IMG/VR virus record: IMGVR_UViG_3300049919_000118 | Span: 1,262 to 65,261 of that record | Direction: 5' to 3' (one strand) | From: a virus | Taxonomy: Duplodnaviria; Caudoviricetes | Length of the DNA: 64,000 bases | In this document: piece by piece, positions 6,147-64,000 of the stretch | Layout of the letters: each line of letters begins with the position of its first letter | Position numbering within the stretch: the stretch's first letter is position 1 | Position numbers and translations under genes: made by a program | The notes under the pieces: generated by a model | The model's input: only the letters and a program-made list of their open reading frames with translations | Told to the model about the DNA's origin: nothing | Database searches by the model: none

Positions 6147-6695
6147 ATGCCCAAGATCAAATTCAACCAAGACGGCCAACCAATCGAAAATAATATTAAC
6201 CATCGGGAGCAGGCCTCATTGATTAAGCTAACTCATAAGCACGTCAACGAGATGATGAAGAATTCACGTGATGGCGGATTCTCTAGCGGGCAACTGTCAG
6301 TATTAGGGTTGACCTTCAAGGATCTAAAGAAAAAAGGATGGAGACAAATGCTTGTTGGTAAGATGGTTTCTCAGCAGGATCTTAACTTCCTGACTAAAAA
6401 GAACACGCCAAAGGTAATCCATCATAAAGAGAAAGACAACTCCCCTCTGATTGAAATGACCGCTGAACGCATTGCCTTTGCGCTCAAGTGCTGCAAAGGC
6501 AGAGCATTCACTGATCGTCAACTATCTGCCACTGCCGGAATCATTACTGATAGGCAAGGCAACAGGGGAATCCTAGGTGCATACATAACTGAAAAGAATT
6601 ATGAAATCCTATGCACACCAAAGACTTTTGCTCAATTCCGGATGGAATCCATCCGGGCGGGGGCGAACATAAAGAAAGAACCAACACCGTTCTGA
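6147..6695 (+). CDS. Hypothetical protein with two copies of the same domain
   Basis: GGFSSGQLSVLGL..KGW and AFTDRQLSA..ITEKNYEILCTPK. Confidence 0.75.
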   Translation: MPKIKFNQDGQPIENNINHREQASLIKLTHKHVNEMMKNSRDGGFSSGQLSVLGLTFKDLKKKGWRQMLVGKMVSQQDLNFLTKKNTPKVIHHKEKDNSPLIEMTAERIAFALKCCKGRAFTDRQLSATAGIITDRQGNRGILGAYITEKNYEILCTPKTFAQFRMESIRAGANIKKEPTPF

Positions 6696-6769
6696 GTTCA
6701 GCTTCGCTGAACCCGGTTCGCCTTGGCGAACTGAGCTCAGCGAAGCTGAGCCCGGTTACGAAGTAACTG
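6694..6769. repeat. Four concatenated mini-hairpins with 3-nt linkers
   Basis: gttcagc-ttc-gctgaac ccg gttcgcc-tt-ggcgaac tga gctcagc-gaa-gctgagc ccg gttac-gaa-gtaac tga. Confidence 0.85.
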
Positions 6770-8236: not shown

Positions 8237-8917
8237 ATGAAAATTTTATTAAAATTCACAAGAAGCAAGCAAGGCGTAGCTGAAAGCGGCTACACCATCG
8301 AAGATGGCGGGGCAAGTAAAGCTTGCTACACCAAGCAAGCTTTCTCTTGCTACATGCACACAGAGGTTGAGTCCGTTGACTCATACGTCACAGACGAGCA
8401 CCGCCCCATCCTCGAGGCTATCGCCTACCCGATATACGTTCACAAATCAACGGTGTATCACAGAATGTGGGTGTGCTCAGACTCCAAAGGGGGGCTGAGT
8501 ATTCCGGGGTCTTTGGCGACAAGTAAAGAACAGTCAGTATATCAGGCGATCAAGCGAATCCTTGGTGTAGGGATTGAAAAGTATAACTCATTGACAGCCA
8601 ATCTGTTACCAATTCCTGAAGGGGAATACGAAACATTTGAATTCAAGACTGAAAAAGAAGAGTCGGTAAACGAAATAGTAAAGCGCTACGACATCCCCAA
8701 TCTGAGGGATGAGATAAATAATATTATCGACGATGAGGGGCATCTAATCGAGAACCCGGAAAAGTTGAAAGGTGTTTCACTTGCGGTATGGTGTGCCTTG
8801 AATTTGGGTGATAGGGCGAAGGCAGCATCACTGCTTATGCAAATGAGTCCAAAGGAAAGAGACATCGCCTTAGCGATTGCTGAAATAGAACCAATAGAAG
8901 GGATACACAGACAATGA
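8237..8917 (+). CDS. Hypothetical protein
   Basis: 226-aa ORF. Confidence 0.75.
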   Translation: MKILLKFTRSKQGVAESGYTIEDGGASKACYTKQAFSCYMHTEVESVDSYVTDEHRPILEAIAYPIYVHKSTVYHRMWVCSDSKGGLSIPGSLATSKEQSVYQAIKRILGVGIEKYNSLTANLLPIPEGEYETFEFKTEKEESVNEIVKRYDIPNLRDEINNIIDDEGHLIENPEKLKGVSLAVWCALNLGDRAKAASLLMQMSPKERDIALAIAEIEPIEGIHRQ

Positions 8918-9213
8918 TAAAATCAAAATCAAAAAGAGTTAAGGTTGGATATGTCCACACTGAACATGATGGAAAACAAAGAATCCAAGAACTCAGATTC
9001 GATAGGCCTACGTGCTACGAAGGAGAGCTACTTGGCTTCGGAGTCCAAGGCGAAGATTCAGAAATGTTCTGCTTCGCATTAGTAAGGAAGGATGATGGGA
9101 CTTACGATACTCCGTCAGTATGTTGTGTTGAGGACTTGTCCTTGACCTGCCAAGAGCAGCTTGGTGCATTAAAGACTCTATACGGTATAGTCCTTAACCC
9201 GCCCTACGCTTAA
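8914..9213 (+). CDS. Hypothetical protein
   Basis: ATGA-coupled 99-aa ORF. Confidence 0.7.
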   Translation: MIKSKSKRVKVGYVHTEHDGKQRIQELRFDRPTCYEGELLGFGVQGEDSEMFCFALVRKDDGTYDTPSVCCVEDLSLTCQEQLGALKTLYGIVLNPPYA

Positions 9214-9390
9214 TGGTTCAAGGGCTTGCCCTTGACGGATAACGATAAACAGTTAAACATAATCACATGAAGAAACATTAACATGAGAAACGAGGCGTGC
9301 ATAGTAACGCCTACAATCTATCCGCTGACACACCGGTTAAAGTGTGTCACCACATTTGCCACCGTAAGTGGCTCAACAATAACAAACAAA

Positions 9391-9840
9391 ATGACAGCAA
9401 CAGTATTAAAAAGAAACGGTGATAAGATTCAAGTTGAACTACCATACTCATCATGGGAGGGTCATGAGCCATACGCAGCAGGCGTATTCATAAAATCAAT
9501 ATACATAGGAAAGATTGCAAAGAGGTGTATCATAAGGCTGTATTCCACATGGGGTAATGGTAAGGGTGAATGCAAAGGTGAATACTACTCTCTCATAGAA
9601 AGCCAGCATGAGCTTGAGGGACTTGCTAAGAACTTCCCTAAGGTTGGCTGGCAGATGGAAAAGCTTGGCATGATTAGAACCCGTGAACAGACGGCTAGAG
9701 ACAATGCCCTTCAAGACTTAAAGCTTGAGGCTGCAACGGGAGGATCGAACCTCAGCGTCATAGTGTGCGAGTTCCTTACAGCCATAGGTCACGCCGATGT
9801 TGCCAACCTATACGCAGATTGCCTGCTGAATCATAAATAA
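9391..9840 (+). CDS. Hypothetical protein
   Basis: ATG after A-rich leader aacaaacaaa. Confidence 0.7.
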   Translation: MTATVLKRNGDKIQVELPYSSWEGHEPYAAGVFIKSIYIGKIAKRCIIRLYSTWGNGKGECKGEYYSLIESQHELEGLAKNFPKVGWQMEKLGMIRTREQTARDNALQDLKLEAATGGSNLSVIVCEFLTAIGHADVANLYADCLLNHK

Positions 9841-9935
9841 TATTATTTAATTCCAAACCGCCAAACGACTATGGAAACTTCGACACACGCCGCCCCGCCC
9901 GCTGTGGTGATCGTCTTTTTCGACATCTTACTATT

Positions 9936-10262
9936 ATGATAACCACAGGAGATAAAGTAACACCGATCAAAGCCACTTGGATGAGGCTTATGGGGGGCGA
10001 GCCCACCGATCATGCAGTCAACCACCCGGATGGATCGCCCCAGCTTGGACACGTTTACTTGGTTACAGGCACCGCGCACCCAAGCGGCGGCGAGCCGGGG
10101 ATATTCTTGGCCGGGTGCCGGAGTATAGGGACACGAGGTCAAGAAATCTCGTTTGTAGCCAGAGCGTTTCGCAAAGTGGTGCCTCGCACCGAGCGAATCA
10201 AGAAGAGCTTAGGGATTCCCCTGTCGAACACTGAGCCCATCCGCGCAGGAAAAAATCTATGA
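9936..10262 (+). CDS. Cassette ORF, hypothetical
   Basis: Lies between a degenerate R box (TTTcgac 9918) and gtcgAAC 10223-10229. Confidence 0.7.
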   Translation: MITTGDKVTPIKATWMRLMGGEPTDHAVNHPDGSPQLGHVYLVTGTAHPSGGEPGIFLAGCRSIGTRGQEISFVARAFRKVVPRTERIKKSLGIPLSNTEPIRAGKNL

Positions 10263-10323
10263 AACCAAACAACATCGAGAACACACAGGCTGGCAGCGAT
10301 TGCTCAGGAGTGTCTTGTTGTGC
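10223..10323 (-). other. attC site (chimeric arms) containing ATG 10259
   Basis: gtcgAAC...gagtgtcttGTTgtgc; GTTgtgc is complementary to the next gcacAAC (10543-10549). Confidence 0.7.
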
Positions 10324-10606
10324 CTCTTCTAGGCCGCGACTCCGTTGCACCGAAAAATGGTCGAATGGCTTCTACATCACCTACAAAGGGCATCGAGCCG
10401 TCATCGAGAGAGACAGCGATAAATCTCCATGGGCGTTCCTCGTGATGGCTCCCGACGGAGGTATACTTGCAGATGGATACACTAAGCGTCCGATGTCGAT
10501 GCAGGAAGCTATCATCCACGCGCTGACCAGTGCATGTCTCTTGCACAACGCCAATGTGAAGGCATCCGTCCCGATGACGCGCTCCGATACTCTCAAACAT
10601 CAATAA
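10259..10606 (+). CDS. Cassette ORF, hypothetical; N-terminus encoded by attC
   Basis: Starts inside attC; C-terminus NANVKAS reads through the next attC half-site. Confidence 0.7.
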   Translation: MKPNNIENTQAGSDCSGVSCCASSRPRLRCTEKWSNGFYITYKGHRAVIERDSDKSPWAFLVMAPDGGILADGYTKRPMSMQEAIIHALTSACLLHNANVKASVPMTRSDTLKHQ

Positions 10607-10611
10607 TCACC

Positions 10612-10821
10612 ATGGAAACCGACGAACAAAAAATACACTACGCGCTCAATCTTTGGGCGAACTACATTGAAACCGGAAATATCGTGCTTTGTGCGCTAGA
10701 TGCACAAAGGCAGGGAGAAAAGGTGAGAGTGTTGAGCGTCTCGCAAATGAAGATGGTCATCCGGCTGCGGGAGCTAGCGCAGATGGCGGCGACCGGTAAA
10801 ATCTCCGTGCAGAACGTCTAG
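10612..10821 (+). CDS. Cassette ORF, hypothetical
   Basis: METDEQK..; ends AAC-GTC-TAG in the next attC. Confidence 0.7.
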   Translation: METDEQKIHYALNLWANYIETGNIVLCALDAQRQGEKVRVLSVSQMKMVIRLRELAQMAATGKISVQNV

Positions 10822-10878
10822 CTATGGCATCCTCAAACTCACCGGCTGTATCCGGTTGGGTCTAGCGCCTTGTTCGCT
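10809..10878 (-). other. attC site (chimeric)
   Basis: gcagAACgtctagctatgg..ggtctagcgccttGTTcgct; GTTcgct matches agcgAAC 11282-11288. Confidence 0.75.
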
Positions 10879-10943
10879 TTCTTAATTTTCTTTGGGCGCA
10901 ACCTGCCCTTGAGTGGTTGCTGGCCGGTGGCCGTTAAAAAAAT

Positions 10944-11294
10944 ATGAATACGATTACGATACCATGCAAAACAGGGGAAATCTCTGACGGCTACCATACA
11001 TTTGACGAACTTTACGACCACCGATGCACGCTATTCCTCGCACTCATGAAATCGCATCCTGAGATGTCATGGATTAGCACAACACACCACGATGGAAGTG
11101 AATGGGAGGGATGGTTTATAGCCGGAATGCGTCTTCCCACGAAAGATGTGACATACCACCTGCCATCCGAAATGTGGGTATCTGCATTGGCAACTGGAGC
11201 AGACGTGTTGGCATGTGGGTTAGAGTGGGATGGTCACACATCAGCGGATGTGGTGCAGCGCATTAAAGCCTGGGTATCCCAAGCGAACGTCTAG
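10944..11294 (+). CDS. WDGH-motif phage protein (cassette)
   Basis: SDGYHTFDELYDHR, WFIAG, TYHLP and EWDGHT motifs. Confidence 0.8.
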   Translation: MNTITIPCKTGEISDGYHTFDELYDHRCTLFLALMKSHPEMSWISTTHHDGSEWEGWFIAGMRLPTKDVTYHLPSEMWVSALATGADVLACGLEWDGHTSADVVQRIKAWVSQANV

Positions 11295-11410
11295 CTCTGG
11301 CATCCCAACCAAATACGACCATGACACACTCATACGATAATCCAGAGCCGGAAACCGCACCCCAAGAAGAGACTAGCGGGACTCTGTTGAAGCCCACCGC
11401 CCTGTTAGCG
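11282..11410 (-). other. attC site containing ATG 11321
   Basis: agcgAACgtctagctctgg...cgccctGTTagcg. Confidence 0.6.
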
Positions 11411-11563
11411 ATTTTGAAGAAGTATCGCTGCCAGCACACATGCGAAAAGGGCGGAGCCGGCTCCCGCCTGGTGGACGTTTTAACGCCGCCAGATGAGGAA
11501 AACATCAGTCTCGGGGAGGATGAGCTTTATCTGCTTGCCGACTTCATCGCTGGAGAAATGTGA
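11321..11563 (+). CDS. Cassette ORF, hypothetical
   Basis: N-terminus MTHSYDNPEPE is shared with ORF 14230. Confidence 0.65.
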   Translation: MTHSYDNPEPETAPQEETSGTLLKPTALLAILKKYRCQHTCEKGGAGSRLVDVLTPPDEENISLGEDELYLLADFIAGEM

Positions 11564-11641
11564 AGGTTTACGCTCATTCTATGGTGTAAACCTTCACGAT
11601 AAAAAATAATATTATTCCTCACATCGAGAAACAACAAAATG
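11558..11641 (+). repeat. 84-bp direct repeat, copy 1 (hairpin + TAATATTA + translation start)
   Basis: Identical to 14584-14667: atgtgaaggtttac..gtaaaccttcacgataaaaaataatattattcctcacatcgagaaacaacaaaatg. Confidence 0.9.
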
Positions 11642-11995
11642 GAAACAAATACAAATACCAAGGCGGCGGAAACCGTCCAAACTACGAGCAATCCGGCGGT
11701 TGCTCAGGAGCGCCTTGTTCGTCGTTCTTCGACGGCGTGCAAACATGGAGATTACGGATGCGGGCAATACTACGACTGCGGGAAATGCGCCCGTGAGAAG
11801 CGAGCCGCAGCCTACAAGCGACTCACGCCGAAACAGAAAGCGTATGATCGCATGATTGATCCGCTCGGAGCTTATCACACGGACTTCCCGCAAGGATGCT
11901 CCTGCCACATCTGCGCCCCGTGCTCCTTCTGCGTCTTGATGACCGAAGAAGAGCCCGACGCCTACGCGAAGTCTTTTTCTTCGACGAACGCCTAG
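11639..11995 (+). CDS. Cys-rich cassette ORF (GCSCHICAPCSFC motif)
   Basis: N-terminus runs through an attC half-site (GTTcgtcg 11717) that matches cgacgAAC 11982-11989. Confidence 0.75.
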   Translation: METNTNTKAAETVQTTSNPAVAQERLVRRSSTACKHGDYGCGQYYDCGKCAREKRAAAYKRLTPKQKAYDRMIDPLGAYHTDFPQGCSCHICAPCSFCVLMTEEEPDAYAKSFSSTNA

Positions 11996-12112
11996 CTCTG
12001 GCACCGCCGGAGACGGCACGAAAAATCATGAAACTACAATCAAATACCAAGGCGGCGGAAACCGTCCAAACTACGAGCAATCCGGCGGTTGCTCAGGAGC
12101 GTCTTGTTAGGC
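11983..12112 (-). other. Intact attC site containing ATG 12028
   Basis: Arms gctctggcaccgccgga / tccggcggttgctcaggagc pair with three extrahelical bases; 5-nt spacers to AAC and GTT. Confidence 0.88.
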
Positions 12113-12279
12113 GTCTTCGGGATTATCACCGGCAGCTCGACACTCACCAGAAAAAAAGAGAAGCGGGGATGCTGATCCTTGAAGCTGCTGATGAGATCGA
12201 CCGCTTGGAATCCGCCGACCCACAACTCTACAACACCAAAAAACTTTATGAAACCAGAAAACTTGAACGAAGAAAGTGA
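12028..12279 (+). CDS. Cassette ORF, hypothetical
   Basis: MKLQSNTKAAETVQTTSNPAVAQERLVRR, same attC-encoded leader as ORF 11639. Confidence 0.7.
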   Translation: MKLQSNTKAAETVQTTSNPAVAQERLVRRLRDYHRQLDTHQKKREAGMLILEAADEIDRLESADPQLYNTKKLYETRKLERRK

Positions 12280-12310
12280 AGGCGGATTGTCCATCCGCGG
12301 TTTGTTGGGC
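12195..12310 (-). other. Degenerate attC (AAC box lost) containing ATG 12248
   Basis: tggaatccgcc / ggcggattgtcca stem; ends tttGTTgggc. Confidence 0.55.
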
Positions 12311-12460
12311 GATCTTGATTCCGAGGTCGAGCAAGCACGCGAAAGGCAAAAAAGCATCATCCGAGAAATCGAAATCAACCAAGCGAGGCAGCAAGTCGTC
12401 GGGGAATACCGAGTCAAATTCATGGACTTGCGGGACAAGCTCCGAGCTAAAGTCTCTTAG
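12248..12460 (+). CDS. Cassette ORF, coiled-coil hypothetical
   Basis: MKPENLNEE.. Confidence 0.7.
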   Translation: MKPENLNEESEGGLSIRGLLGDLDSEVEQARERQKSIIREIEINQARQQVVGEYRVKFMDLRDKLRAKVS

Positions 12461-12589
12461 GCTAACGCCTAGCTCATCCGTGGAAGGAAATAATCATCAA
12501 AACTTTATGTCACAAGAAAACGAAATCGAAGCAGAAAAACTCAGCCCAACAATAGACTTCCTTCCATCGGATGAGACGCCTTGTTGTGT
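12460..12589 (-). other. attC site containing ATG 12507
   Basis: ggctAAC..ctcatccgtggaaggaa / ttccttccatcggatgag..cttGTTgtgt. Confidence 0.82.
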
Positions 12590-12827
12590 CTCCCGATTCT
12601 TTCGGATGCAACTCGTCAAGTTCCCGATCGGGGGTGGGGCATACCAGCAATGCACGTTCATCGGTGTGGATTCTCACGGCGTGGCTACCGTCAAAACGCA
12701 GGGCGGCAGATACCGCACGGTGTGGGACTGCAATTTGTATTCTGTGCATAACGCCAATGTGGACCTGCCGGATACAGCCGCGCAGGACTCCGCTTCAAAA
12801 TCAAACTCACCGGCTGTATCCGGTTAG
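12507..12827 (+). CDS. Cassette ORF, small SH3-like hypothetical; C-terminus encoded by attC
   Basis: Ends NANVDLPDTAAQDSASKSNSPAVSG. Confidence 0.65.
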   Translation: MSQENEIEAEKLSPTIDFLPSDETPCCVSRFFRMQLVKFPIGGGAYQQCTFIGVDSHGVATVKTQGGRYRTVWDCNLYSVHNANVDLPDTAAQDSASKSNSPAVSG

Positions 12828-12846
12828 GTCTCACGACTTGTTAGCC
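12746..12846 (-). other. Intact attC site
   Basis: gtggacctgccggatacagccg / cggctgtatccggttaggtctcac with bulges; GTTagcc matches the next ggctAAC. Confidence 0.88.
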
Positions 12847-12857
12847 TCTTTGAAATT

Positions 12858-13238
12858 ATGAACGACCTTGAATGCCCATACTGTGATGCCCCAAACGAAG
12901 TCTGCCACGACGATGGCCAAGGCTACGAAGAGGGGAAAGCCCATGAAATGACCTGCGGCGACTGCGGGAAAAACTTCGTCTTCCAAACGTCGATCAGCTT
13001 CTACTACTCACCCGAAAAAGCGGACTGCCTGAATGGCTCGCCGCACCGATTCGGGGAATGGCGGAAGCTGTGGCTCAACGCCAAGATGGAGGAAATTCAG
13101 GATCGCCGCTGCAAGGACTGCGACCACACCGAGCGCCGGACGGTTCCAAATTCTCGGGCTAACGCCAATGTGGACCTGCCGGATACAGCCGTGCATGACT
13201 CTGATTCAAAACCAAACAATCCGGCTGTATCCGGTTAG
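12858..13238 (+). CDS. Zinc-ribbon cassette protein
   Basis: CPYC, CGDC and CKDC motifs. Confidence 0.8.
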   Translation: MNDLECPYCDAPNEVCHDDGQGYEEGKAHEMTCGDCGKNFVFQTSISFYYSPEKADCLNGSPHRFGEWRKLWLNAKMEEIQDRRCKDCDHTERRTVPNSRANANVDLPDTAVHDSDSKPNNPAVSG

Positions 13239-13257
13239 GTCTCACGACTTGCTCATC
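13157..13257 (-). other. attC site (GTT mutated to GCT), near-copy of the 12746 site
   Basis: Same arms as 12746-12846. Confidence 0.8.
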
Positions 13258-13262
13258 CTATT

Positions 13263-13604
13263 ATGAATTACCAAAAGACAGCGAAAAAAATGGAAACCGA
13301 AACTATCGACCGTCTATTCCTGGAACTCTCACAAGTCACCCAGGCTACCACCGAAAAAGAAATCCGACTCAAGGAGCAAAATCAAATGCTATCAAAGCAC
13401 GTCGTCAGCCTAACGAAAGAAAGGGAAGACCTCCTAGACCTGCTGACATCTGCCAGAGCTATCGCAATCCGTCACGGGGAAGATACTGCGTGGGAGCACT
13501 TCGGCGAACGCTTGAGGCTTGCTGGCGCTGGTTCTGTGACGCCAAAGACGTTCCGAGTTCTGCCGAACGACGCAGAAAACAGCTTGGATTCACAGAACGC
13601 CTAG
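13263..13604 (+). CDS. Cassette ORF, hypothetical
   Basis: TIDRLFLELSQVT motif; ends AAC-GCC-TAG. Confidence 0.75.
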   Translation: MNYQKTAKKMETETIDRLFLELSQVTQATTEKEIRLKEQNQMLSKHVVSLTKEREDLLDLLTSARAIAIRHGEDTAWEHFGERLRLAGAGSVTPKTFRVLPNDAENSLDSQNA

Positions 13605-13650
13605 CTGATCCACGGCGCTTGTCGCCGTGGGGTCTAGCGCCTTATTCTGA
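13592..13650 (-). other. Short attC site (GTT mutated to ATT)
   Basis: gctgatccacggcg-cttgt-cgccgtggggtctagc; ATTctga matches the next tcagAAC. Confidence 0.8.
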
Positions 13651-13655
13651 CTCTT

Positions 13656-13976
13656 ATGACACACTCCGAAAAACTAAAACGAATCGAAACACTCATGGCT
13701 TCGCCGGATGTGATCGAACTGGATGCAATCTTCGCCGAGGTGGAAGCCTTTGAAAAGTTGGCATACCCGATCCCACTGCCCACCATCCCAGAAGCGATGA
13801 AGTCCCGCCGCGAGCAAATGGGGGAGAATCAACGCGAAATCTCGATGCGGGCAGGCATGTCGCTGAACCGATGGAAACACCTCGAAAGCGGCAAGAACGA
13901 ACCATCCATCGCTGACGCTAGAAAGCTCTACTCAGTCGGAATCTCCGCCTATGTAATTCTTGGTCAGAACGCCTAG
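13656..13976 (+). CDS. HigA-like XRE HTH protein (orphan antitoxin-like) in a cassette
   Basis: ELDAIFAEVEAFEKLAYPIPLPTIPEAMKSRREQMG followed by an HTH. Confidence 0.75.
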   Translation: MTHSEKLKRIETLMASPDVIELDAIFAEVEAFEKLAYPIPLPTIPEAMKSRREQMGENQREISMRAGMSLNRWKHLESGKNEPSIADARKLYSVGISAYVILGQNA

Positions 13977-14009
13977 CTATGGAATCCACACCACTTACCA
14001 AATACGACC

Positions 14010-14189
14010 ATGAACCAAGACACACTACAGCAAATCGCCCAAGTAGATGAAAAACTGACGATCCTCCGCGAAAGCTGGATGGACTCCAAGACCGAGAAGA
14101 GATCGACGTGGATGGCCAAGATCGACGACGCGCTCGATGAGCGCTCAAAGATGATGAAAATCCGCGACGGGAAACCTGCCTCTGCATAA
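14010..14189 (+). CDS. Cassette ORF, 59 aa (below the ORF-track cutoff)
   Basis: MNQDTLQQIAQVDEKL..; stop TAA overlaps the next AAC box. Confidence 0.65.
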   Translation: MNQDTLQQIAQVDEKLTILRESWMDSKTEKRSTWMAKIDDALDERSKMMKIRDGKPASA

Positions 14190-14314
14190 CGTCTAGCGAT
14201 GGCATCGCTGCCACTTACCACATACAACTATGCCACACTCATACGATAATCCGGAGCCGGAAGCCGAACCTCAACAGGAGACTGGTGGGGATTGCCAGAC
14301 ACGACCTGTGCGAC
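14184..14314 (-). other. Degenerate attC (GTT mutated to GTG) containing ATG 14230
   Basis: gcatAACgtctagcgatggcatc..gattgccagacacgacctGTGcgac. Confidence 0.6.
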
Positions 14315-14520
14315 TCTTCCGCAATGATAACGAATTCGAGGGCGGTCAATACACCGCGGAAGGAATCGAGCTGAATCTCCCATGTGGGAAACTCCGCATC
14401 GGCAGAATGATCATGCTGCCACCGACTAAGCTGCCGTCCATCGCCTACATCGGGCGGCGGAACACATGGACATGGACAATCCGCGTGTGGACAGTGGCCA
14501 TTTCATTTAAGCCGAACTGA
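14230..14520 (+). CDS. Cassette ORF, hypothetical
   Basis: Ends gccgAAC-TGA. Confidence 0.65.
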   Translation: MPHSYDNPEPEAEPQQETGGDCQTRPVRLFRNDNEFEGGQYTAEGIELNLPCGKLRIGRMIMLPPTKLPSIAYIGRRNTWTWTIRVWTVAISFKPN

Positions 14521-14583
14521 CAACTGGATCGACGCCTACCACTGGACGCCGGATTCTGAGGCTAGCTAGTGGATGGCCTACAC

Positions 14584-14667
14584 ATGTGAAGGTTTACGCT
14601 CATTCTATGGTGTAAACCTTCACGATAAAAAATAATATTATTCCTCACATCGAGAAACAACAAAATG
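14584..14667 (+). repeat. 84-bp direct repeat, copy 2
   Basis: Identical to 11558-11641. Confidence 0.9.
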
Positions 14668-15150
14668 AATATAAAAACAGCAAAGAGAAACAGGCATAGC
14701 ACATACAGGTTCATCGTAACCAGTGTTGTGTCCGAGGGATCTGGGAACTACAAAAACAATATGACTGTCGATACACCGGAAGCCGTTGTCGATTTCTGGA
14801 ACAAGGAAATAAAAAGCCAGCCGTCGTTCGAGAACGACAAGGAGAACCTAGTCGTGGTTCTACTCAATGCTAGGCTCAGAGCTTTTGCTTGGAACATTGT
14901 TTCAATCGGAGCTTTGTCGGAAACGACTGCTCATCCGAGAGAGATCCTTAGGCCTTGCATAGCTGGTGCCGCTCACTCATTCGTGTTGATTCACAACCAT
15001 CCGTCTGGATTCCCTGAGCCAAGCTGGGCTGACGAGCTTCTGACCAAGAGAATTAAGGAGGCATCTGAACTAATGCAGATAAAAATCGTAGATCATATCA
15101 TCATTGGTAACGATTCACACTATTCATTCAGAGAGTCAGGATTGCTATGA
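14665..15150 (+). CDS. radC: RadC-like JAB domain protein
   Basis: HPREI, HNHPSG..PS.AD, DHIIIG and YSFRESGLL motifs. Confidence 0.9.
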   Translation: MNIKTAKRNRHSTYRFIVTSVVSEGSGNYKNNMTVDTPEAVVDFWNKEIKSQPSFENDKENLVVVLLNARLRAFAWNIVSIGALSETTAHPREILRPCIAGAAHSFVLIHNHPSGFPEPSWADELLTKRIKEASELMQIKIVDHIIIGNDSHYSFRESGLL

Positions 15151-16526
15151 AGGAAATAAACTTGTTTGGCTTTCAGGGAGAATTCAAGGAGCGTATAGCA
15201 ACAGCCATGCGTAAGCATAAGCGCGTCCTTGGCGTAGCAGCCACGGGTTTTGGTAAGGGCGTGGTCATTGCTGACATAGCGAAGAGCGCGATTATCAAAG
15301 GGTCGGTGACATGTATTGCAGTTCACAGGATCGAGATCTTCAAACAAGTCTTCAACAACTTGGTCTCTTATGGTATAACTCCAAGCCTCATAGCGGCGGG
15401 ATCAAAGATTTCACCCGGCTCCAAGTGCTATCTCGCTATGGTTGACACTCTCAACTCTAGGATAAAAAAGGGAATGATAGAGATGCTTAATATTAATTTC
15501 TTTATCATGGATGAGGCGCACTATGCATCTCACTTCAAAGTTATAAATGGAGTTGACTGCTTTGTTCTTGGCCTTACCGCCTCACCCAAGAGCACTGGAA
15601 ATCCAGAGCTTAACAAATACTTTGGCGTCATGGTGGAAGGTAAGCCAGTCAAAGAGCTGATACAGATTGGAAGGCTTGTGAGGGCTAGAACTTTCAGTGT
15701 GGACTGGGACTTCTCAAAAGTTAAACTCAACTCCAAAGGAACTGAGTTTGATGAGAAGTCTCTCAAGGAAGAATTCCAAAAGCCAATGCTTTGGGATGGT
15801 GCCGTGAACTCATACCTCAAGCACGCCAATGGATTACAAGCGTTGTGCTTCTCAGCCAATATAGAGAGATCTCTTTCAGTGACGGAGCAATTCAATACGC
15901 ATGGAATAAAGGCGGCTCATGTTAATGGCTCAACAAAGGAATCAGAAAGGGATGCGATCTTTGATAGGTATAGGCGCGGTGACGTACAGGTGATATGCAA
16001 TGTCGGCATCGCGACAACGGGGACTGATTTGCCTAATACGAAGTGTGTGATACTAGACCTAGCAACAATGTCCATCGTCAAGTATGTCCAAATGGTTGGT
16101 CGTGGAGCTAGGTGCGCGCCTGACAAAGACCACTTCATCGTCATAGATATGGGGAGAAATTACTCTAGGTTTGGGGAGTTCGGGGACTATATAGATTGGA
16201 AGGCAATCTTTGATAAGCCGTCCCTTGCTGCTGTTAAAAGAGAGAAAAGAAACAAGAGGGAGTGCAGTAATTGCGGGGTTGTGATGGAGTTCCATACCTC
16301 GAAATGTCCATACTGCGATCATGAAACAGCAAGGGCGAAGCTTGACAGTATGGCTGAAAAGCAAATGACAGCTGAAGAGCTTATGAATTACAGGCATAAG
16401 ATGCTGCCTGACAGGCTGAAAGTTCCAATCTCAAGCATGAGTTACAGTATGCTAAGGGAATACGCCGCTGCCGTTGGTCATAACTACCGATGGGCAAACA
16501 TCGTCCATGCAAAAAGAAGGCATTGA
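15147..16526 (+). CDS. SF2 DEAH helicase with C-terminal Zn finger (RadD/YejH-like)
   Basis: ATGFGKG, DEAH, LTASP, QMVGRGAR and CSNC..CPYC motifs. Confidence 0.92.
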   Translation: MKEINLFGFQGEFKERIATAMRKHKRVLGVAATGFGKGVVIADIAKSAIIKGSVTCIAVHRIEIFKQVFNNLVSYGITPSLIAAGSKISPGSKCYLAMVDTLNSRIKKGMIEMLNINFFIMDEAHYASHFKVINGVDCFVLGLTASPKSTGNPELNKYFGVMVEGKPVKELIQIGRLVRARTFSVDWDFSKVKLNSKGTEFDEKSLKEEFQKPMLWDGAVNSYLKHANGLQALCFSANIERSLSVTEQFNTHGIKAAHVNGSTKESERDAIFDRYRRGDVQVICNVGIATTGTDLPNTKCVILDLATMSIVKYVQMVGRGARCAPDKDHFIVIDMGRNYSRFGEFGDYIDWKAIFDKPSLAAVKREKRNKRECSNCGVVMEFHTSKCPYCDHETARAKLDSMAEKQMTAEELMNYRHKMLPDRLKVPISSMSYSMLREYAAAVGHNYRWANIVHAKRRH

Positions 16527-16555
16527 CCAAATCAAACCAAGGAATATCATAAGTT

Positions 16556-16774
16556 ATGATAACAATCCAACCGACTGACATAGTTAATTCATTCGCTTCG
16601 CCAGTCCTATTCAATAGGACTGGTAATATCAGGGATAAGATTTCCCAATGCTCAAGAGAAGAGCTTCTCGATTACTCAATCTATCTTGTTTGCCACCTTG
16701 AGAAGTATCAAGCTTACTCGGAGAGGACAAACAGAGATCTTGAAGACATCTTAGGATGGAACGAGAAGTTGTGA
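16556..16774 (+). CDS. Hypothetical protein
   Basis: 72-aa ORF just after TTGACC-16nt-TATCAT. Confidence 0.6.
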   Translation: MITIQPTDIVNSFASPVLFNRTGNIRDKISQCSREELLDYSIYLVCHLEKYQAYSERTNRDLEDILGWNEKL

Positions 16775-16835
16775 ACATGGATAGGCGAAAATAATATTAA
16801 CCATAAAAGGGCGTGAACCTTCACCCCCAAATAAA

Positions 16836-17480
16836 ATGAAAGCAGAAGACTCATACTTTATATGTGAGGTTGAAGTCTATCCAGTGATGGATGGAAGATT
16901 CATAATGTATCCTCACGTTATGAATAATCGCAAATACTACAAGGCTGGACCAATAGAAACTAGGTATGTAATACGCAGACCTCTAGGCATTGCTAATGAA
17001 CATGTGTATAAGAGCCAGATACAAACAACGTGCTGCATGTTCGAGTCTAAACTAGCGCCAACGAATAGATACATTAGGACCATAGATGCTTCATACTTTA
17101 AGTATTACGATGACGCTGAAGAGGTGTTAAATAATATTATTCTTTTCATACTATGGATAAAGGAGATAGCGGTGACGAGGAAGTGGGAAAAACAGTTCGT
17201 GAAGATAGCGAAAGAGAACGAATTCCTAGTGAGGGACACGGACGATTCTCCAGAGGAAGCATTGATTCGAGCATCTCAAATTGGATTGAAAGTAAAGAGG
17301 CGAAGCGAACAGGATCAAAGCGTAAACATCCTAGATATAAAGGACTGGCTAAAGTCAGCGGAAAGCAAAGAAAAAGAAATTCAGAATACACTGAAGCCAA
17401 AAGAAGTTTTCTCTCAAGAGAAGAAAACAGAGAGTGCTCCATCTGCAAAACTAGAGACGGGCTTTCTATTCACCATGTAG
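16836..17480 (+). CDS. Hypothetical protein (3' half overlaps the next gene)
   Basis: 214-aa ORF. Confidence 0.55.
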   Translation: MKAEDSYFICEVEVYPVMDGRFIMYPHVMNNRKYYKAGPIETRYVIRRPLGIANEHVYKSQIQTTCCMFESKLAPTNRYIRTIDASYFKYYDDAEEVLNNIILFILWIKEIAVTRKWEKQFVKIAKENEFLVRDTDDSPEEALIRASQIGLKVKRRSEQDQSVNILDIKDWLKSAESKEKEIQNTLKPKEVFSQEKKTESAPSAKLETGFLFTM

Positions 17481-17650
17481 GTAAAAGACTTGGCGAGATA
17501 GCCAATGAAGAATTATTCATGACCCTATGTATGACAAGTTCATACCTAGATAATAAGCACCCACACCTGAATCATTCCCATTCGGGTGGCTGTCATGGAT
17601 TTGTTGAAGGGAATAAACAATGGGCAAGAACAAATGGATACCTCAAATAA
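17153..17650 (+). CDS. HNH-like nuclease (start uncertain)
   Basis: CSIC..IHH..LC..GCH..WARTNGYL. Confidence 0.7.
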   Translation: MDKGDSGDEEVGKTVREDSERERIPSEGHGRFSRGSIDSSISNWIESKEAKRTGSKRKHPRYKGLAKVSGKQRKRNSEYTEAKRSFLSREENRECSICKTRDGLSIHHVGKRLGEIANEELFMTLCMTSSYLDNKHPHLNHSHSGGCHGFVEGNKQWARTNGYLK

Positions 17651-18173
17651 AATAAAAAAACACTTCAATAAAAACCCTGAAGACGTGAATGCCGTGATGA
17701 AGGCTTATCACGCCTATCACGTAGACCACTTCAGATCACACCGCAAAGCACACAATTTCCTATCATCATCAAGGATAAGTGAATGTGAATGGTGCGGAAG
17801 GACAAGGGAAGATGTGAGATGGGACACCCTTCCGCCGGAATGCCAGATGCGACCTGCTTACGCAGACATTCCAATAGGTGATGCGCTCACTGAAGAGGAA
17901 GCCAAGGCTCACGCTGTATATGATAGAGCAAAGGGCGATGTCCCAAGGCTTGTAAAGAAAATGGGCATGAGCGGCAACACGCTAGCCAAGCTTCATCACA
18001 CTCATGGCTATGATCCTGAAACTGTAAGCGGTATAGTGGATGTCCCTCAAGACGTCATGGAGGAATACCACTCCAGCATGGAGATCGAGCGCGATACATC
18101 ACGCAAGGCAATAGTTCGTGAAGTCGTAACCTGTGTATTTGACGAGACTGCAAAACAAGCTGAAGATAAATAA
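17634..18173 (+). CDS. Hypothetical protein with AlaRS-like C-terminal helical segment
   Basis: GNTLAKLHHTHGYDPE..MEEYHSSMEIERDTSR. Confidence 0.65.
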   Translation: MDTSNKIKKHFNKNPEDVNAVMKAYHAYHVDHFRSHRKAHNFLSSSRISECEWCGRTREDVRWDTLPPECQMRPAYADIPIGDALTEEEAKAHAVYDRAKGDVPRLVKKMGMSGNTLAKLHHTHGYDPETVSGIVDVPQDVMEEYHSSMEIERDTSRKAIVREVVTCVFDETAKQAEDK

Positions 18174-18193
18174 AATTATTTCTGACATGATCC
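18155..18193 (+). repeat. Direct repeat, copy 1 (copy 2 at 19328-19366)
   Basis: acaagctgaagataaataaaattatttc-nnnn-ATGatcc. Confidence 0.8.
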
Positions 18194-18393
18194 ACGTAAT
18201 ACCAATCAATGACAAAATAACCCACACCGCAGACTGTGAATGCTGCAATGCTTACCTTGATCCCGATGGATTCTGGATACACCATTCCGCCGATAAGCGG
18301 GAGCAATACGAGAGGCGGGGTGAAAAAGGAGAGCCGTGGCAACTATTTGCCGAAGACGATGCCACGGGATTACTCGTCCCCATTGATGGCTAA
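18187..18393 (+). CDS. Small phage protein (HVIPIND..H..CxC..HH motif)
   Basis: Ends ggcTAAc at the attC. Confidence 0.75.
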   Translation: MIHVIPINDKITHTADCECCNAYLDPDGFWIHHSADKREQYERRGEKGEPWQLFAEDDATGLLVPIDG

Positions 18394-18488
18394 CGTCAAA
18401 GAGCACCCAACCACATGAGCGAAAACCAAGCAAAAATTCAGAACGAAGCAACCCGCTCATGTGGGTTGGGTGGCTCGTCTTGTTCGCT
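18388..18488 (-). other. Intact attC site containing the MTase start
   Basis: gagcacccaaccacatgagcg / cgctcatgtgggttgggtggctc with 2 extrahelical bases; GTTcgct matches agcgAAC 19271-19277. Confidence 0.88.
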
Positions 18489-19260
18489 TTTGCGCGTCTT
18501 GGTGGCTTGTGAGTATTCAGGCACGGTGAGAGATGCTTTTGTCGCACTTGGGCATGATGCTATGAGCTGCGATATCCTGCCAACGGATAGCCCCGGCAAT
18601 CACTACCAAGGAGACGTTCGGGACGTAATGAATGATGGATGGGATATGATGATCTGCCATCCACCATGCACCTACCTGAGTGTGTCGGGTATCCACTGGA
18701 ACAATCGCGGGCGCGGATGGGGAGAAACCGAAAAAGCGCTAGACTTCGTGCGGCTGCTGATGGGCGCGAACATCCCGCGCATAGCGCTGGAAAACCCGGT
18801 ATCGATCATCTCCAGCAAGATCCGCAAACCGGATCAAATCATCCAGCCTCACCAATACGGCCATGACGCCAGCAAGGCTACATGCCTATGGCTCAAGAAT
18901 CTCCCAAAGCTCACAGCAACAGAATCAATCCAGCCCAGGATCGTGAATGGGAAGACCCGTTGGGCCAATCAGACGGACGGCGGGCAAAACAAACTCCCGC
19001 CCAGCAAAGACCGATGGAAACTCAGATCAACGACGTACAAAGGCATTGCGGAAGCCATGGCCAATCAGTGGAGCGCATACGCATTGTTGCAGCGTGCGAA
19101 CTCCCAGAGTGTGAATGCTGCGGGGAACCTTGGTGCCCTATTTGCTTGGAACACTATAGCGACTGCGAATGCGTCGGACCATGCAACGACGAAGATGAAG
19201 GATGGCAACTCGAAGAACGAGGCGGAATCCTCTACGGAATACGAGCTTGCACACCGATGA
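18415..19260 (+). CDS. Phage-type C5 DNA cytosine methyltransferase (cassette-borne)
   Basis: VLVACEYSG, SCD, HPPCT, ENP, KATCLWL and IAEAMANQW motifs. Confidence 0.88.
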   Translation: MSENQAKIQNEATRSCGLGGSSCSLLRVLVACEYSGTVRDAFVALGHDAMSCDILPTDSPGNHYQGDVRDVMNDGWDMMICHPPCTYLSVSGIHWNNRGRGWGETEKALDFVRLLMGANIPRIALENPVSIISSKIRKPDQIIQPHQYGHDASKATCLWLKNLPKLTATESIQPRIVNGKTRWANQTDGGQNKLPPSKDRWKLRSTTYKGIAEAMANQWSAYALLQRANSQSVNAAGNLGALFAWNTIATANASDHATTKMKDGNSKNEAESSTEYELAHR

Positions 19261-19298
19261 ACCAACTCGAAGCGAACAGCGGAGTTAGTATCTCTTAA
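19068..19298 (+). CDS. Cys-rich small protein overlapping the MTase tail
   Basis: GTG start; CECCGEPWCPICLEHYSDCECVGP. Confidence 0.6.
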   Translation: MERIRIVAACELPECECCGEPWCPICLEHYSDCECVGPCNDEDEGWQLEERGGILYGIRACTPMNQLEANSGVSIS

Positions 19299-19359
19299 AT
19301 TAAAATAACAAAAAATGAACCTACTAGACAAGCTGAAGATAAATAAAATTATTTCCGGT

Positions 19360-19764
19360 ATGATCCTGATCGAGGTCAATGAGAATCAAGGGGTCGAGGA
19401 TATGATGCACTCAATGGGAGACCAAGACGCAATCATATACACTCCGACTGAAGTTGAATTCGGGAGATTGGATAAATACTTTTGCAATCTGCAAAACAAA
19501 GTTGCCATTGATTGCGGGTCAATCAAAACAGCAATGAGAATCATGGGCGAAATCAAACATACGCCAGACTTTCACATCATCAATCGAATAGATATGATGG
19601 ACATTGACTTGCCAAAGAGAAAGAGGGGAACTAAGATAATCGCCTCCTTAGCAAGAATGATGTCAGAGAAAATTCTGAGAGGCTCATGCCTCATAGTTAT
19701 AAGCGGTAGGTCTGAATACCGTATCAGAGAAATGGCAGACAAAATTATAGACGCAAAAATATGA
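19360..19764 (+). CDS. Hypothetical protein
   Basis: ATG inside direct repeat copy 2. Confidence 0.7.
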   Translation: MILIEVNENQGVEDMMHSMGDQDAIIYTPTEVEFGRLDKYFCNLQNKVAIDCGSIKTAMRIMGEIKHTPDFHIINRIDMMDIDLPKRKRGTKIIASLARMMSEKILRGSCLIVISGRSEYRIREMADKIIDAKI

Positions 19765-63815: not shown

Positions 63816-64000
63816 GCATCACCTGAACGGCATCACCTGAACGGCATCACTGAAACGCCACACCTGAAACGGCATCACCTGAACGGCATCACCTGAACGG
63901 CATCACTGAAACGGCATCACCTGAACGGCATCACTGAAACGGCATCACTGAAACGGCATCACTGAAACGCCACACCTGAACGGCATCACTGAAACGGCAT
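63816..64000 (+). repeat. 14-bp tandem repeat (about 13 units, runs off the window end)
   Basis: Unit variants GGCATCACCTGAAC, GGCATCACTGAAAC and GCCACACCTGAAAC. Confidence 0.92.

Follow-up and report, generated by a model that had tools for sequence, protein, structure and literature searches.

Back-to-Front Integron-Type Cassettes in the Early Arm of a Divergent Tailed Phage That Carries No Integron Integrase

Introduction

Can a phage carry an array of integron cassettes without the integrase that would move them, and with all of their genes turned the wrong way round? The question is raised by the segment 9871–14520 of a 64,000-nucleotide stretch of viral DNA (hereafter the window), which corresponds to bases 1262–65261 of the 65,261-bp IMG/VR virus record IMGVR_UViG_3300049919_000118, a record with direct terminal repeats. 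The segment is tiled by 14 small open reading frames (ORFs) of the plus strand, which are separated by elements bounded by AAC and GTT triplets. An original prediction made from the DNA letters had described it as a phage-borne array of gene cassettes with attC sites, lacking an integrase and having every ORF antisense to attC. The sites are integron-type attC by every structural test run here. We regard it as probable that the segment is an integrase-less integron-type cassette array in the phage early arm, moved by a host integrase in trans and by now partly eroded.

Identity and Strand of the attC Sites

Five elements of the array form long imperfect hairpins (11983–12112, 12460–12589, 12746–12846, 13157–13257, and 13592–13650) when folded as DNA, with z-scores of −1.8 to −5.6 relative to 200 shuffles. 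The four that had been singled out as the best sites (all but 13157–13257) have z-scores of −1.8 to −3.9. They are present at the positions predicted and each is matched end to end, on the minus strand, by the covariance model R2 described below. The sites have a length of 59–130 nt (the attC reference length is roughly 57–141 nt), spacers of 4–7 nt, mostly of 5 nt, and one to three unpaired bases found on a single arm only, which is the GTT arm of the plus strand. The placement on one arm is as predicted, while the measured ranges are wider than the 5-nt spacers and the two to three unpaired bases expected. AAC and GTT boxes are both present in five of the seven model matches in the window, the two others carrying GCT (13157–13257) or ATT (13592–13650) in place of GTT. 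Of the reference boxes RYYYAAC and GTTRRRY, the RRRY portion is loosely kept (aggc, agcc, cgct, gtgc).

The strand of an attC site can be read from its extrahelical bases. These were compared with bona fide integrons whose integrases scored above the NCBIfam cut-off. The integron integrase IntI turned up in 116 of the 301 Gammaproteobacteria sampled (112/297 once four unpublished genomes are set aside) and in 86 of 301 Verrucomicrobiota, and is thus frequent in these candidate host groups. The cassette side was fetched for 16 gammaproteobacterial and 20 verrucomicrobial loci. Many of the verrucomicrobial IntI matches lie in open frames of 420–570 amino acids (aa), the family model having 315 positions. 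Among 59 gammaproteobacterial control sites identified by a hairpin parser, extra bases are found on the AAC arm only in 46, on the other arm only in 3, on both in 2, and on neither in 8; the corresponding numbers for 50 verrucomicrobial sites are 39, 6, 0, and 5. According to Nivina 2016 (PMC5027507), the extrahelical bases of the bottom strand lie opposite the AAC arm and occupy position 16, in some cases 20, and 23/24; 6 bp separate the first from the last, which is usually a T. The commonest bulge classes on control bottom strands were (16,20,24), (16,23), and (17,23), and the last bulge is a T in 33/46. The phage sites, read on the ORF-sense strand, feature the classes (16,23), (17,20,24), (16,21,24), and (17,23). 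Their last bulge is a T in nine of the ten phage sites listed, the tenth (position 8721 of the related viral locus L035) having only a C at 16. The spacer bases lead to the same assignment. In bona fide top strands a G follows AAC in 1/46 and 1/37 cases and a C precedes GTT in 44/46 and 37/37. The minus strand of the window sites has an A after AAC (7/7) and a C before GTT (7/7), with G and T at these places on the plus strand. The spacers thus fit the minus strand as top strand and violate the rule on the plus strand.

Two covariance models were built. R2 was trained on 36 attC top strands found beside IntI in 7 Verrucomicrobiota genomes and has 20 base pairs. On 16 unseen gammaproteobacterial integron loci it gave 83 matches with an expectation value (E) ≤ 1, and for all 83 the strand was the one that the position of intI predicts. 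Its seven best matches in the window score 49.2, 43.2, 28.0, 26.5, 22.0, 16.9, and 16.2 bits (E 3e-9 to 0.12) and are all on the minus strand. They correspond to six array sites and to a solo site at 18388–18488; the best plus-strand match reaches 13.2 bits (E 0.58). The weaker, independent model R1 (39 gammaproteobacterial sites, 13 pairs) places its two best matches in the window at 18388–18488 (20.8 bits, E 0.017) and 12746–12846 (19.2 bits, E 0.038), again on the minus strand. Six model matches are therefore found within 2.9 kb (10809–13650) of a record without an integron integrase, that is, a cluster of attC sites lacking integron integrase (CALIN) on the minus strand, as the original prediction had anticipated. 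Models, bulge arm and spacer bases all assign the attC top strand to the minus strand, which had been said to read like classical attC.

The hairpin parser identified eight plus-strand sites with a score ≥10 in the window, compared to 0–2 in six dinucleotide shuffles. Five of the eight have extra bases on the GTT arm only. Four of these are the array or solo sites; the fifth is an AAC..GTT hairpin at 6679–6757 with a parser score of 12.2 that is confirmed by neither covariance model. A 32-nt palindrome at 61141–61172, with R-box-like ends only (..TAAC... ...GTTGGGC; stem and loop deleted), is given 18.9 bits by R1 and 11.8 by R2 (minus strand). It may be a chance occurrence or a minimal secondary site.

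Since these hairpins are found between genes on the transcribed strand, and bear start codons in their loops, they could be read as RNA or transcription signals (terminators, processing or translation control elements) in which the AAC and GTT triplets are incidental. According to Qi, Rajabal, Ghaly, Tetu, and Gillings (2023, Front Microbiol, PMC9892861), attC sites are themselves believed to include weak terminators. We find this reading scarcely credible. An Rfam scan of the window identified no family, the stems are not followed by T-runs, the models tell the strand by integrase-binding features, and the complementarity between flanks across whole genes (see below) has no RNA explanation.

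Gene Strand and the Solo Methyltransferase Cassette

The genes supported by a protein family are on the plus strand. They encode a WDGH-domain protein (E 1.2e-32), a DNA methyltransferase (phrog_757, E 2.9e-66), a helix-turn-helix protein (HTH_19, E 1.7e-5), and a small Cys-rich protein (ORF J) whose family has 361 homologues. Eight minus-strand ORFs gave no Pfam match. The claim that every ORF is antisense to attC holds: all seven model sites are on the minus strand and the family-confirmed genes on the plus strand, so that each cassette reads attC first and then its gene. The canonical arrangement, an ORF co-oriented with the attC top strand, is found at none of the seven sites. In the bacterial integron controls the longer open frame is on the top strand in 46/49 downstream and 45/51 upstream flanks. 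The gene strand was taken from family matches because the longest-open-frame test is noisy in GC-rich phage loci (18/27 and 20/28).

The organization is most simply read at the solo element, 4 kb downstream of the array, which was absent from the list of the original prediction and was found by the hairpin parser. Its intact attC (18388–18488, minus strand) is the best-scoring site of the window. It is followed by the methyltransferase ORF (18415–19260, plus strand), whose phrog_757 match starts from residue 26, directly after the R″ box, and by a closing box agcgAAC (19271–19277, minus strand). The order on the plus strand is ggctAAC, hairpin, GTTcgct, methyltransferase, agcgAAC; the AT-rich backbone that follows has no hairpin. 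The minus strand displays a textbook integrated cassette made of TTcgct, the gene, and a complete attC ending in G. The cassette is canonical (ORF then attC) solely on this strand; on the plus strand attC therefore comes first and the gene second, which would put the crossover at AA↓C. For the attC-then-gene architecture the solo element is decisive, independently of the bulges. A 39-nt backbone repeat (92% identical; 18155–18193 and 19328–19366) brackets ORF 18187–18394 together with the methyltransferase cassette. It parallels a 96-nt repeat found around the second part of the array (see below).

The gene strand also bears on a simpler history, in which a piece of bacterial integron was acquired once by illegitimate recombination, happened to be inserted in reverse and is now disappearing. 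The GC content of the array (0.524) above that of the backbone (0.44–0.46) and its many decayed sites agree with such an origin, and there is a precedent in Vibrio phages with host integron fragments (PMC9892861). A bacterial array inserted backwards would nevertheless have its genes on the minus strand (compare the 46/49 control flanks), while here they tile the cassettes on the strand that the phage transcribes. The reversed layout recurs in unrelated viral records, a second independent insertion is found at 18388, the ORF J family is known from at least 160 viral stretches, the majority lacking attC, and scans of species genomes and metagenomes did not find a bacterial source. We thus hold a passive fossil to be very improbable.

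Several array ORFs open at an ATG found in the hairpin loop. The ending Asn-Ala/Val-stop (AAC GYC TAG) is shared by five, with a conserved TAG two codons after the next AAC; their last two codons and stop are therefore supplied by the next site. One arm is read in two frames, by ORFs 10259 and 11639. The methyltransferase family match starts only after R″ and not at the loop ATG. The loop ATG is thus a putative start codon.

ORF J illustrates how a gene may become part of a cassette. Its family (~100 aa, Cys/His-rich) has invariant CPYC, CHxDG, and ADCLN motifs in an alignment of 28 members and occurs in at least 160 IMG/VR stretches, as noted above. Among 80 viral loci with ORF J homologues (L114–L193), attC matches were found in five only. 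All 12 of these matches are antisense to the gene, eight being distinct because L123 and L124 are duplicates, and one is located immediately upstream of the gene. Several database homologues end with ..A-N-A/V/E/T, the ending expected of a frame that enters an R′ box with G or A after its AAC. Because only 5 of the 80 loci have attC nearby, ORF J appears to be an ordinary phage gene that was turned into a cassette here.

Cassette Scars and Absence of an Integrase

Insertion of circular cassettes leaves complementary bases on the two sides of each gene. The 4 nt after GTT are complementary to the 4 nt before the next AAC at 30/36 positions, and six of nine cassettes are perfect. A perfect fit is seen in only 3/72 non-partner pairs, and as high a total was obtained in 8 of 200,000 permutations. 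The five GTTnnnn/nnnnAAC pairs quoted in the original prediction were all correct. Flank scars are also found in related viral loci (33/36 in L034, 20/20 in L035, and 7/12 in L123), being even better kept in L034 and L035 than in the window.

A TIGR02249 search of the whole 65,261-bp record yielded no candidate, tyrosine recombinases of any kind included; the same search also picks up generic tyrosine recombinases in all 14 control genomes. The absence of an integrase, claimed from the letters of the window, thus extends to the complete record. A complete integron is not present, as intI was found 0 times in the record; no search was made for attI, which has no general model. None of the 13 other viral records with these site types, three of them rated 92–100% complete, has an integron integrase.

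It could be argued from this absence in all 14 records, and from a gene orientation opposite to that of integrons, that a different recombinase, an unrecognized enzyme of phage or host, acts on the hairpins and that their likeness to attC is convergent. Ten large late ORFs of the phage without a known family leave room for such an enzyme. We judge this quite unlikely, as the sites match models trained solely on IntI-associated attC and have the IntI-specific bulge spacing together with AAC/GTT boxes. Furthermore, the TIGR02249 search, sensitive to generic tyrosine recombinases, gave no candidate in the record, and IntI1 recombined five of six phage attC sites, from three virulent phages, with attI1 (Qi 2023, PMC9892861).

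Proposed Mechanism and Points Against It

The explanation that we favor, a cassette array used by an integrase that the phage does not encode, can be described as follows. The recombinogenic bottom strand of attC would be the phage coding (plus) strand and, in consequence, the crossover would take place at 5′-AA↓C-3′ of the gene-distal arm. The mobile unit on the plus strand would be attC hairpin, GTTnnnn, gene, and nnnnAA. In several cassettes the loop ATG would open the ORF, and the TAG after the next AAC would close five frames. Because the phage has no integron integrase, one from the infected host, supplied in trans, would insert and exchange the cassettes. Their expression would come from read-through of phage early promoters, and the methyltransferase element would represent a second, single-cassette insertion. 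The array may still be mobile today on this account. Since about half of the sites are eroded and some joints are found at loop ATGs, ordinary homologous or illegitimate recombination would have reshaped the array as well.

A number of results weigh against this explanation. The models were home-built from bona fide integrons with a shortened calibration. R2 found nothing significant in the published phage P12002L, whose attC sites were recombined experimentally, and its sensitivity is therefore incomplete. Of the seven model matches two have non-GTT triplets, one does not fold and two are above E 0.05, and about eight further array elements are halves that no integrase could use. Site homology between phages extends 8–26 nt past GTT into a shared leader and its ATG, a feature for which integrase crossover alone is no explanation. 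Logan contigs of four other freshwater runs, in the parts of the fragmented array that they cover, gave no clean joint of cassette gain or loss, a kind of variation that the original prediction had proposed to look for in related phage genomes. They provided two weak joints, from 12588 to 18392 (with a 21-letter side) and from 12862 to 13151 (inside a repeat), and loose ends at attC-core borders.

The search for a bacterial source points the same way. A 20-mer of the commonest arm had seven matches in 185,579 species genomes, all coding and attributable to chance, with no bacterial integron found among them. In metagenome contigs it had ten matches, four of which are phage relatives or copies of known loci (L071, L076, L078, identical to L034, and L080, identical to L033), the rest being chance. 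A single 22-nt arm match to a verrucomicrobial attC (E 1.7e-4) was identified and no other.

Organization of the Array

The prediction of a visibly GC-richer cassette region agrees with a GC content of 0.524 within 9871–14520, compared to 0.458 and 0.440 in its flanks. About 13 sites had been counted; the elements do exist, but just five are full and foldable, one is a hybrid and the other ~8 are orphan halves. All attC-type elements described below are on the minus strand and all ORFs and backbone repeats on the plus strand.

The array begins with an orphan half made of a loop with ATG and an L″ arm (9871–9924). It counts as decayed because its R″ is TTT instead of GTT. This piece aligns to the loop and 3′ arm of an intact site (L035:8024–8138) and, in the sequencing runs X5 and X7, its part 9871–9901 continues into an intact ...CCGCCTTGTT arm. 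It is followed by an ORF of 108 aa (9936–10262) that has no family in the profile searches. The next orphan half (10259–10323) has the loop ATG, the L″ arm and an R″ GTTgtgc but its 5′ arm is missing; it shows 79–84% identity to the loop and 3′ arm of full sites in L034, L035, L081, L082, and L085. The ORF of 115 aa at 10259–10606 begins in this loop and crosses R″ and the following R′. An orphan R′-L′ arm (gcacAAC..., 10543–10560; repeat family D14) closes the cassette that GTTgtgc opens. An ORF of 69 aa (10612–10821) then ends with ..QNV-TAG within the next site. This site (10809–10878) is the hybrid, whose arms belong to two types and whose R″ is GTTcgct (R2 16.2 bits, E 0.12); it folds poorly, no better than chance (z −0.7/−1.1). 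The WDGH-domain ORF (10944–11294; PF25311) is flanked by GTTcgct and agcgAAC. The latter belongs to an orphan R′-L′-loop half (agcgAAC...ATG, 11282–11320; repeat families D5, D6, and D10) from which the 3′ arm is missing.

The ORF of 80 aa at 11321–11563 shares its first ~22 codons with the array's last ORF (repeat family D10). These two otherwise unrelated ORFs are alike directly after orphan 5′ arms (11321–11380 and 14230–14289, 84% DNA identity), and a conserved module appears to extend into their coding start. The array is then split by the first copy of a backbone repeat composed of terminator, promoter and start regions (11558–11653). It is 96% identical to the second copy, located at 14584–14679 ahead of the RadC gene, so that the second sub-array is bracketed by this 96-nt repeat.

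The second sub-array starts with an orphan half (loop ATG, L″, R″ GTTcgtc; 11639–11723) that is fused to the backbone start region and is 95% identical to 12041–12119. A Cys-rich ORF of 118 aa (11639–11995; phrog_8837, E 3.8e-4) ends with ..TNA-TAG in the next site, the intact attC of 130 nt at 11983–12112 (R2 22.0 bits, E 0.0054). The bulges of this site are G16/T20/T24 on the plus-strand GTT arm and L034 and L035 have the same site type. Two overlapping small ORFs (12028–12279 and 12248–12460), the first of which begins in the loop, occupy the segment 12028–12460. The next attC (12460–12589), also of 130 nt, has one bulged T (R2 16.9 bits, E 0.082; fold z −2.7). The ORF of 106 aa at 12507–12827 starts in its loop and ends inside the following hairpin; it is 47% identical over 57 aa to an L088 ORF. 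That hairpin is the intact attC of 101 nt at 12746–12846 (R2 43.2 bits, E 7e-8; R1 19.2 bits), whose identity to sites in L088–L092 is 90–94%. ORF J (126 aa, 12858–13238; phrog_6504, its 361 homologues being counted at E ≤ 1e-5) belongs to a Cys-rich zinc-ribbon-like family and precedes the attC at 13157–13257, which has GCT as R″ (R2 28.0 bits, E 2.3e-4; fold z −4.7/−5.6). An ORF of 113 aa (13263–13604) ends with ..QNA-TAG. The short attC of 59 nt that comes next (13592–13650) has ATT as R″ (R2 26.5 bits, E 5e-4; fold z −3.8).

The helix-turn-helix ORF (13656–13976), whose HTH_19 match is below the Pfam cut-off, is followed by orphan R′-L′-loop halves only: tcagAAC...ATG (13964–14009) and, after an ORF of 59 aa whose TAA stop overlaps the next AAC (14010–14189), gcatAAC...ATG (14184–14229). 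The last ORF has 96 aa (14230–14520). A contig of run X6 matches the window to 14559 and then continues into another attC-type 5′ arm in place of the backbone terminator. This contig may derive from a variant or relative whose array has one more cassette on its right side.

Erosion and Recombination Other Than by an Integrase

Roughly half of the sites are halves, hybrids or have a mutated GTT, and three R″ triplets are mutated (GCT, ATT, and TTT). In six or seven places the break of an orphan half falls at the loop ATG, and both sub-arrays start at a loop ATG joined to the duplicated backbone promoter. Several junctions thus coincide with the loop start codon instead of the AAC/GTT boxes, so that an integrase was not behind all of the rearrangement. 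Similarity between phages begins at AAC or at most ~10 nt upstream of it in every comparison, and exactly at AAC when the site at 12750 is compared with L088, L091, and L092. Together with the homology past GTT, these data suggest that insertion of the integrase type was overlaid by recombination through homology or microhomology.

The same features could be accounted for if the hairpins were domesticated modules, portable units that now mainly provide gene starts (loop ATG and leader) and gene ends (the conserved TAG), while genes were exchanged through homology or microhomology between these ~100-nt repeats and no integrase acted any longer. This would fit the breaks at the loop ATG, the hybrid site with arms of two types, the fusion of both sub-arrays to the duplicated promoter, the similarity that runs past GTT through the shared leader to the ATG, the translation of one arm in two frames (ORFs 10259 and 11639), and the three mutated R″ triplets. 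We consider it unlikely, as it accounts for erosion after insertion and not for the origin of the array. The complementary 4-nt flanks (30/36; 20/20 in L035) correspond to crossover of circular cassettes inside the AAC/GTT box rather than to homologous exchange. In addition, the integrase-binding bulge positions are kept through compensatory stem changes in the window, L034 and L035, for which a start module has no need.

Relatives in Other Viral Records and the Search for a Host

Related sites were found, together with chance matches, by means of exact patterns from the arms of three site types. The same hairpin types recur in at least 13 further viral records (G001–G004, G309–G317), at the loci L032–L035, L081, L082, L085, L086, and L088–L092, whose GC content is 0.43–0.64. 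The window has no cassette in common with L033–L035, L045, and L046, and at the protein level a single weak match of the terminase-like ORF was found. A backbone gene of L089 is 64% identical to that of the window; its synteny differs and the comparison gave no usable empty site. The stems of one site type covary among its copies in the window, L034 and L035. R1 has seven co-oriented matches in L034, where a Dam methyltransferase cassette (PF05869, E 1.9e-28) and a backbone helicase are antisense to all model matches. The R2 matches in L081–L092 oppose the strand of the search pattern by construction and were not counted as evidence of orientation. The arm pattern of type A gave 31 single matches in IMG/VR, which is about the number expected by chance on a rough estimate, and none was accompanied by a second motif. 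A candidate locus (L036, in record G005) was discarded, since the match is a chance one in a capsid-like gene and its integrase is an ordinary phage integrase.

Two verrucomicrobial loci (L101 and L105, in genomes G581 and G485) contain chromosomal integron arrays with near-identical attC sites of 91 nt, whose 5′ arm is like the minus strand of the type-A sites of the window. This arm likeness is a weak lead to Verrucomicrobiota as the possible host phylum. Inferring the host phylum from overall site similarity was rejected, as R2 scores 17–49 bits on phage sites and 15–53 bits on gammaproteobacterial sites.

The Phage Genome

Plus-strand genes are found over the first 29 kb of the window and minus-strand genes over the remainder. 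The identifiable genes code for a UvrD-like helicase, RadC, an SF2 helicase, and ThyX. Ten large late ORFs (320–772 aa) have no Pfam or PHROG family in profile searches, and for this reason we conclude that this is a very divergent tailed phage. Its identity as a phage is based on the IMG/VR record with terminal repeats and on a 706-aa ORF whose match to large terminases in a protein atlas, although made with very high confidence, is taken as a lead only. The virion module is essentially unannotatable with profile libraries, and an ORF of 3152 aa (29305–38766, minus strand) has no Pfam or PHROG family either. An N4-like identity, suspected from this ORF, was dropped as Pfam gives it no support.

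The window or a part of it is contained in 24 public freshwater metagenome runs, six of which have at least half of its sampled words. Contigs of other runs bridge the array borders without differences (8500–11587 in X2, 8500–10706 in X5, and 14407–15077 in X6), which means that the array is not an assembly chimera. A distant DNA search of GenBank phages with the segment 9000–16600 gave no match, and no relative of the downstream helicase was found in IMG/VR. Three copies (74–84% identical) of a ~100-nt repeat are located upstream of the first early genes (1004–1115, 1523–1628, and 2186–2291). Tandem repeats of ~56 nt (86–92% identical) occupy 63816–64000, the window's right end, and are close to the terminal repeat.

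Relation to Known Systems and Significance

The phage sites share with those of bacterial integrons the R boxes, a spacer of ~5 nt, the L boxes, bulges at 16/20/23–24, a variable loop, and a length of 59–130 nt. The array resembles bacterial ones in its R′/R″ scars, in having one small promoterless gene per cassette, and in the similarity of site types within the pool. It differs from them by the lack of intI with its adjacent attI and Pc promoter and by genes found on the bottom strand, the control integrons having the longer frame on the top strand (46/49). Furthermore, its ORFs start in a hairpin loop and stop in the next site, and expression is proposed to come from phage promoters. Chromosomal integrons do contain a minority of inverted cassettes with their own promoter (e.g., toxin-antitoxin cassettes), in which the gene is antisense to attC; here every cassette is inverted and would be read through from outside.

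The survey of Qi et al. (2023) reported 17 CALINs, each with at least two attC, in 10,705 phage genomes, and methyltransferase cassettes among their content (PMC9892861). The present array is similar in having attC and cassettes, including a methyltransferase, without an integrase, and the use of bacterial IntI is proposed by the same authors. As CALINs in virulent phages are published (PMC9892861), the kind is already known and the claim to novelty is weakened. The array described here is larger than those CALINs (six model matches and ~8 halves, 14 ORFs, and a second locus), and its site types are common to 13 or more other records of uncultured viruses. Phage TJE1, a published case, has its two R2 matches on the gene strand, one at the 3′ end of orf1 and one at that of orf2 (methylase). 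Its order is canonical, with sites after genes, whereas 7/7 sites are antisense and ahead of genes here. The passages of Qi et al. cited here liken phage arrays to bacterial ones with no mention of reversed polarity, a matter on which the supplementary tables of that paper may bear. A full-text literature search, with supplementary files outside its scope, found no report of reversed phage cassette arrays. As the control integrons and TJE1 are co-oriented, the reversed polarity is a real difference from bacterial integrons and from the one published phage case tested.

Integrons are regarded as a bacterial device, and the phage examples published to date, as far as the sources cited here describe them, are few, small, and canonical in layout. 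The present array passes the site-level structural tests except for two mutated triplets and one non-folding hybrid, and every gene in it is reversed. Four viral records compared protein by protein share essentially only the sites with this phage. We put forward tentatively, as a possibility somewhat short of probable, that freshwater phages share a back-to-front cassette pool of their own, moved between unrelated phages by borrowed host integrases. In such a pool the gene would be carried behind its attC hairpin, the loop giving the start codon and the neighbor the stop. If this is true, the recombinogenic strand is the non-template strand of heavily transcribed early genes. Phage cassettes would then be silent in the host integron and host cassettes silent in the phage, so that the two pools would share an enzyme and stay functionally insulated. 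It would mean that phages use host integrases to trade early and anti-defense genes, such as methyltransferases. The array also provides a natural setting in which to ask what determines cassette polarity and how cassettes arise.

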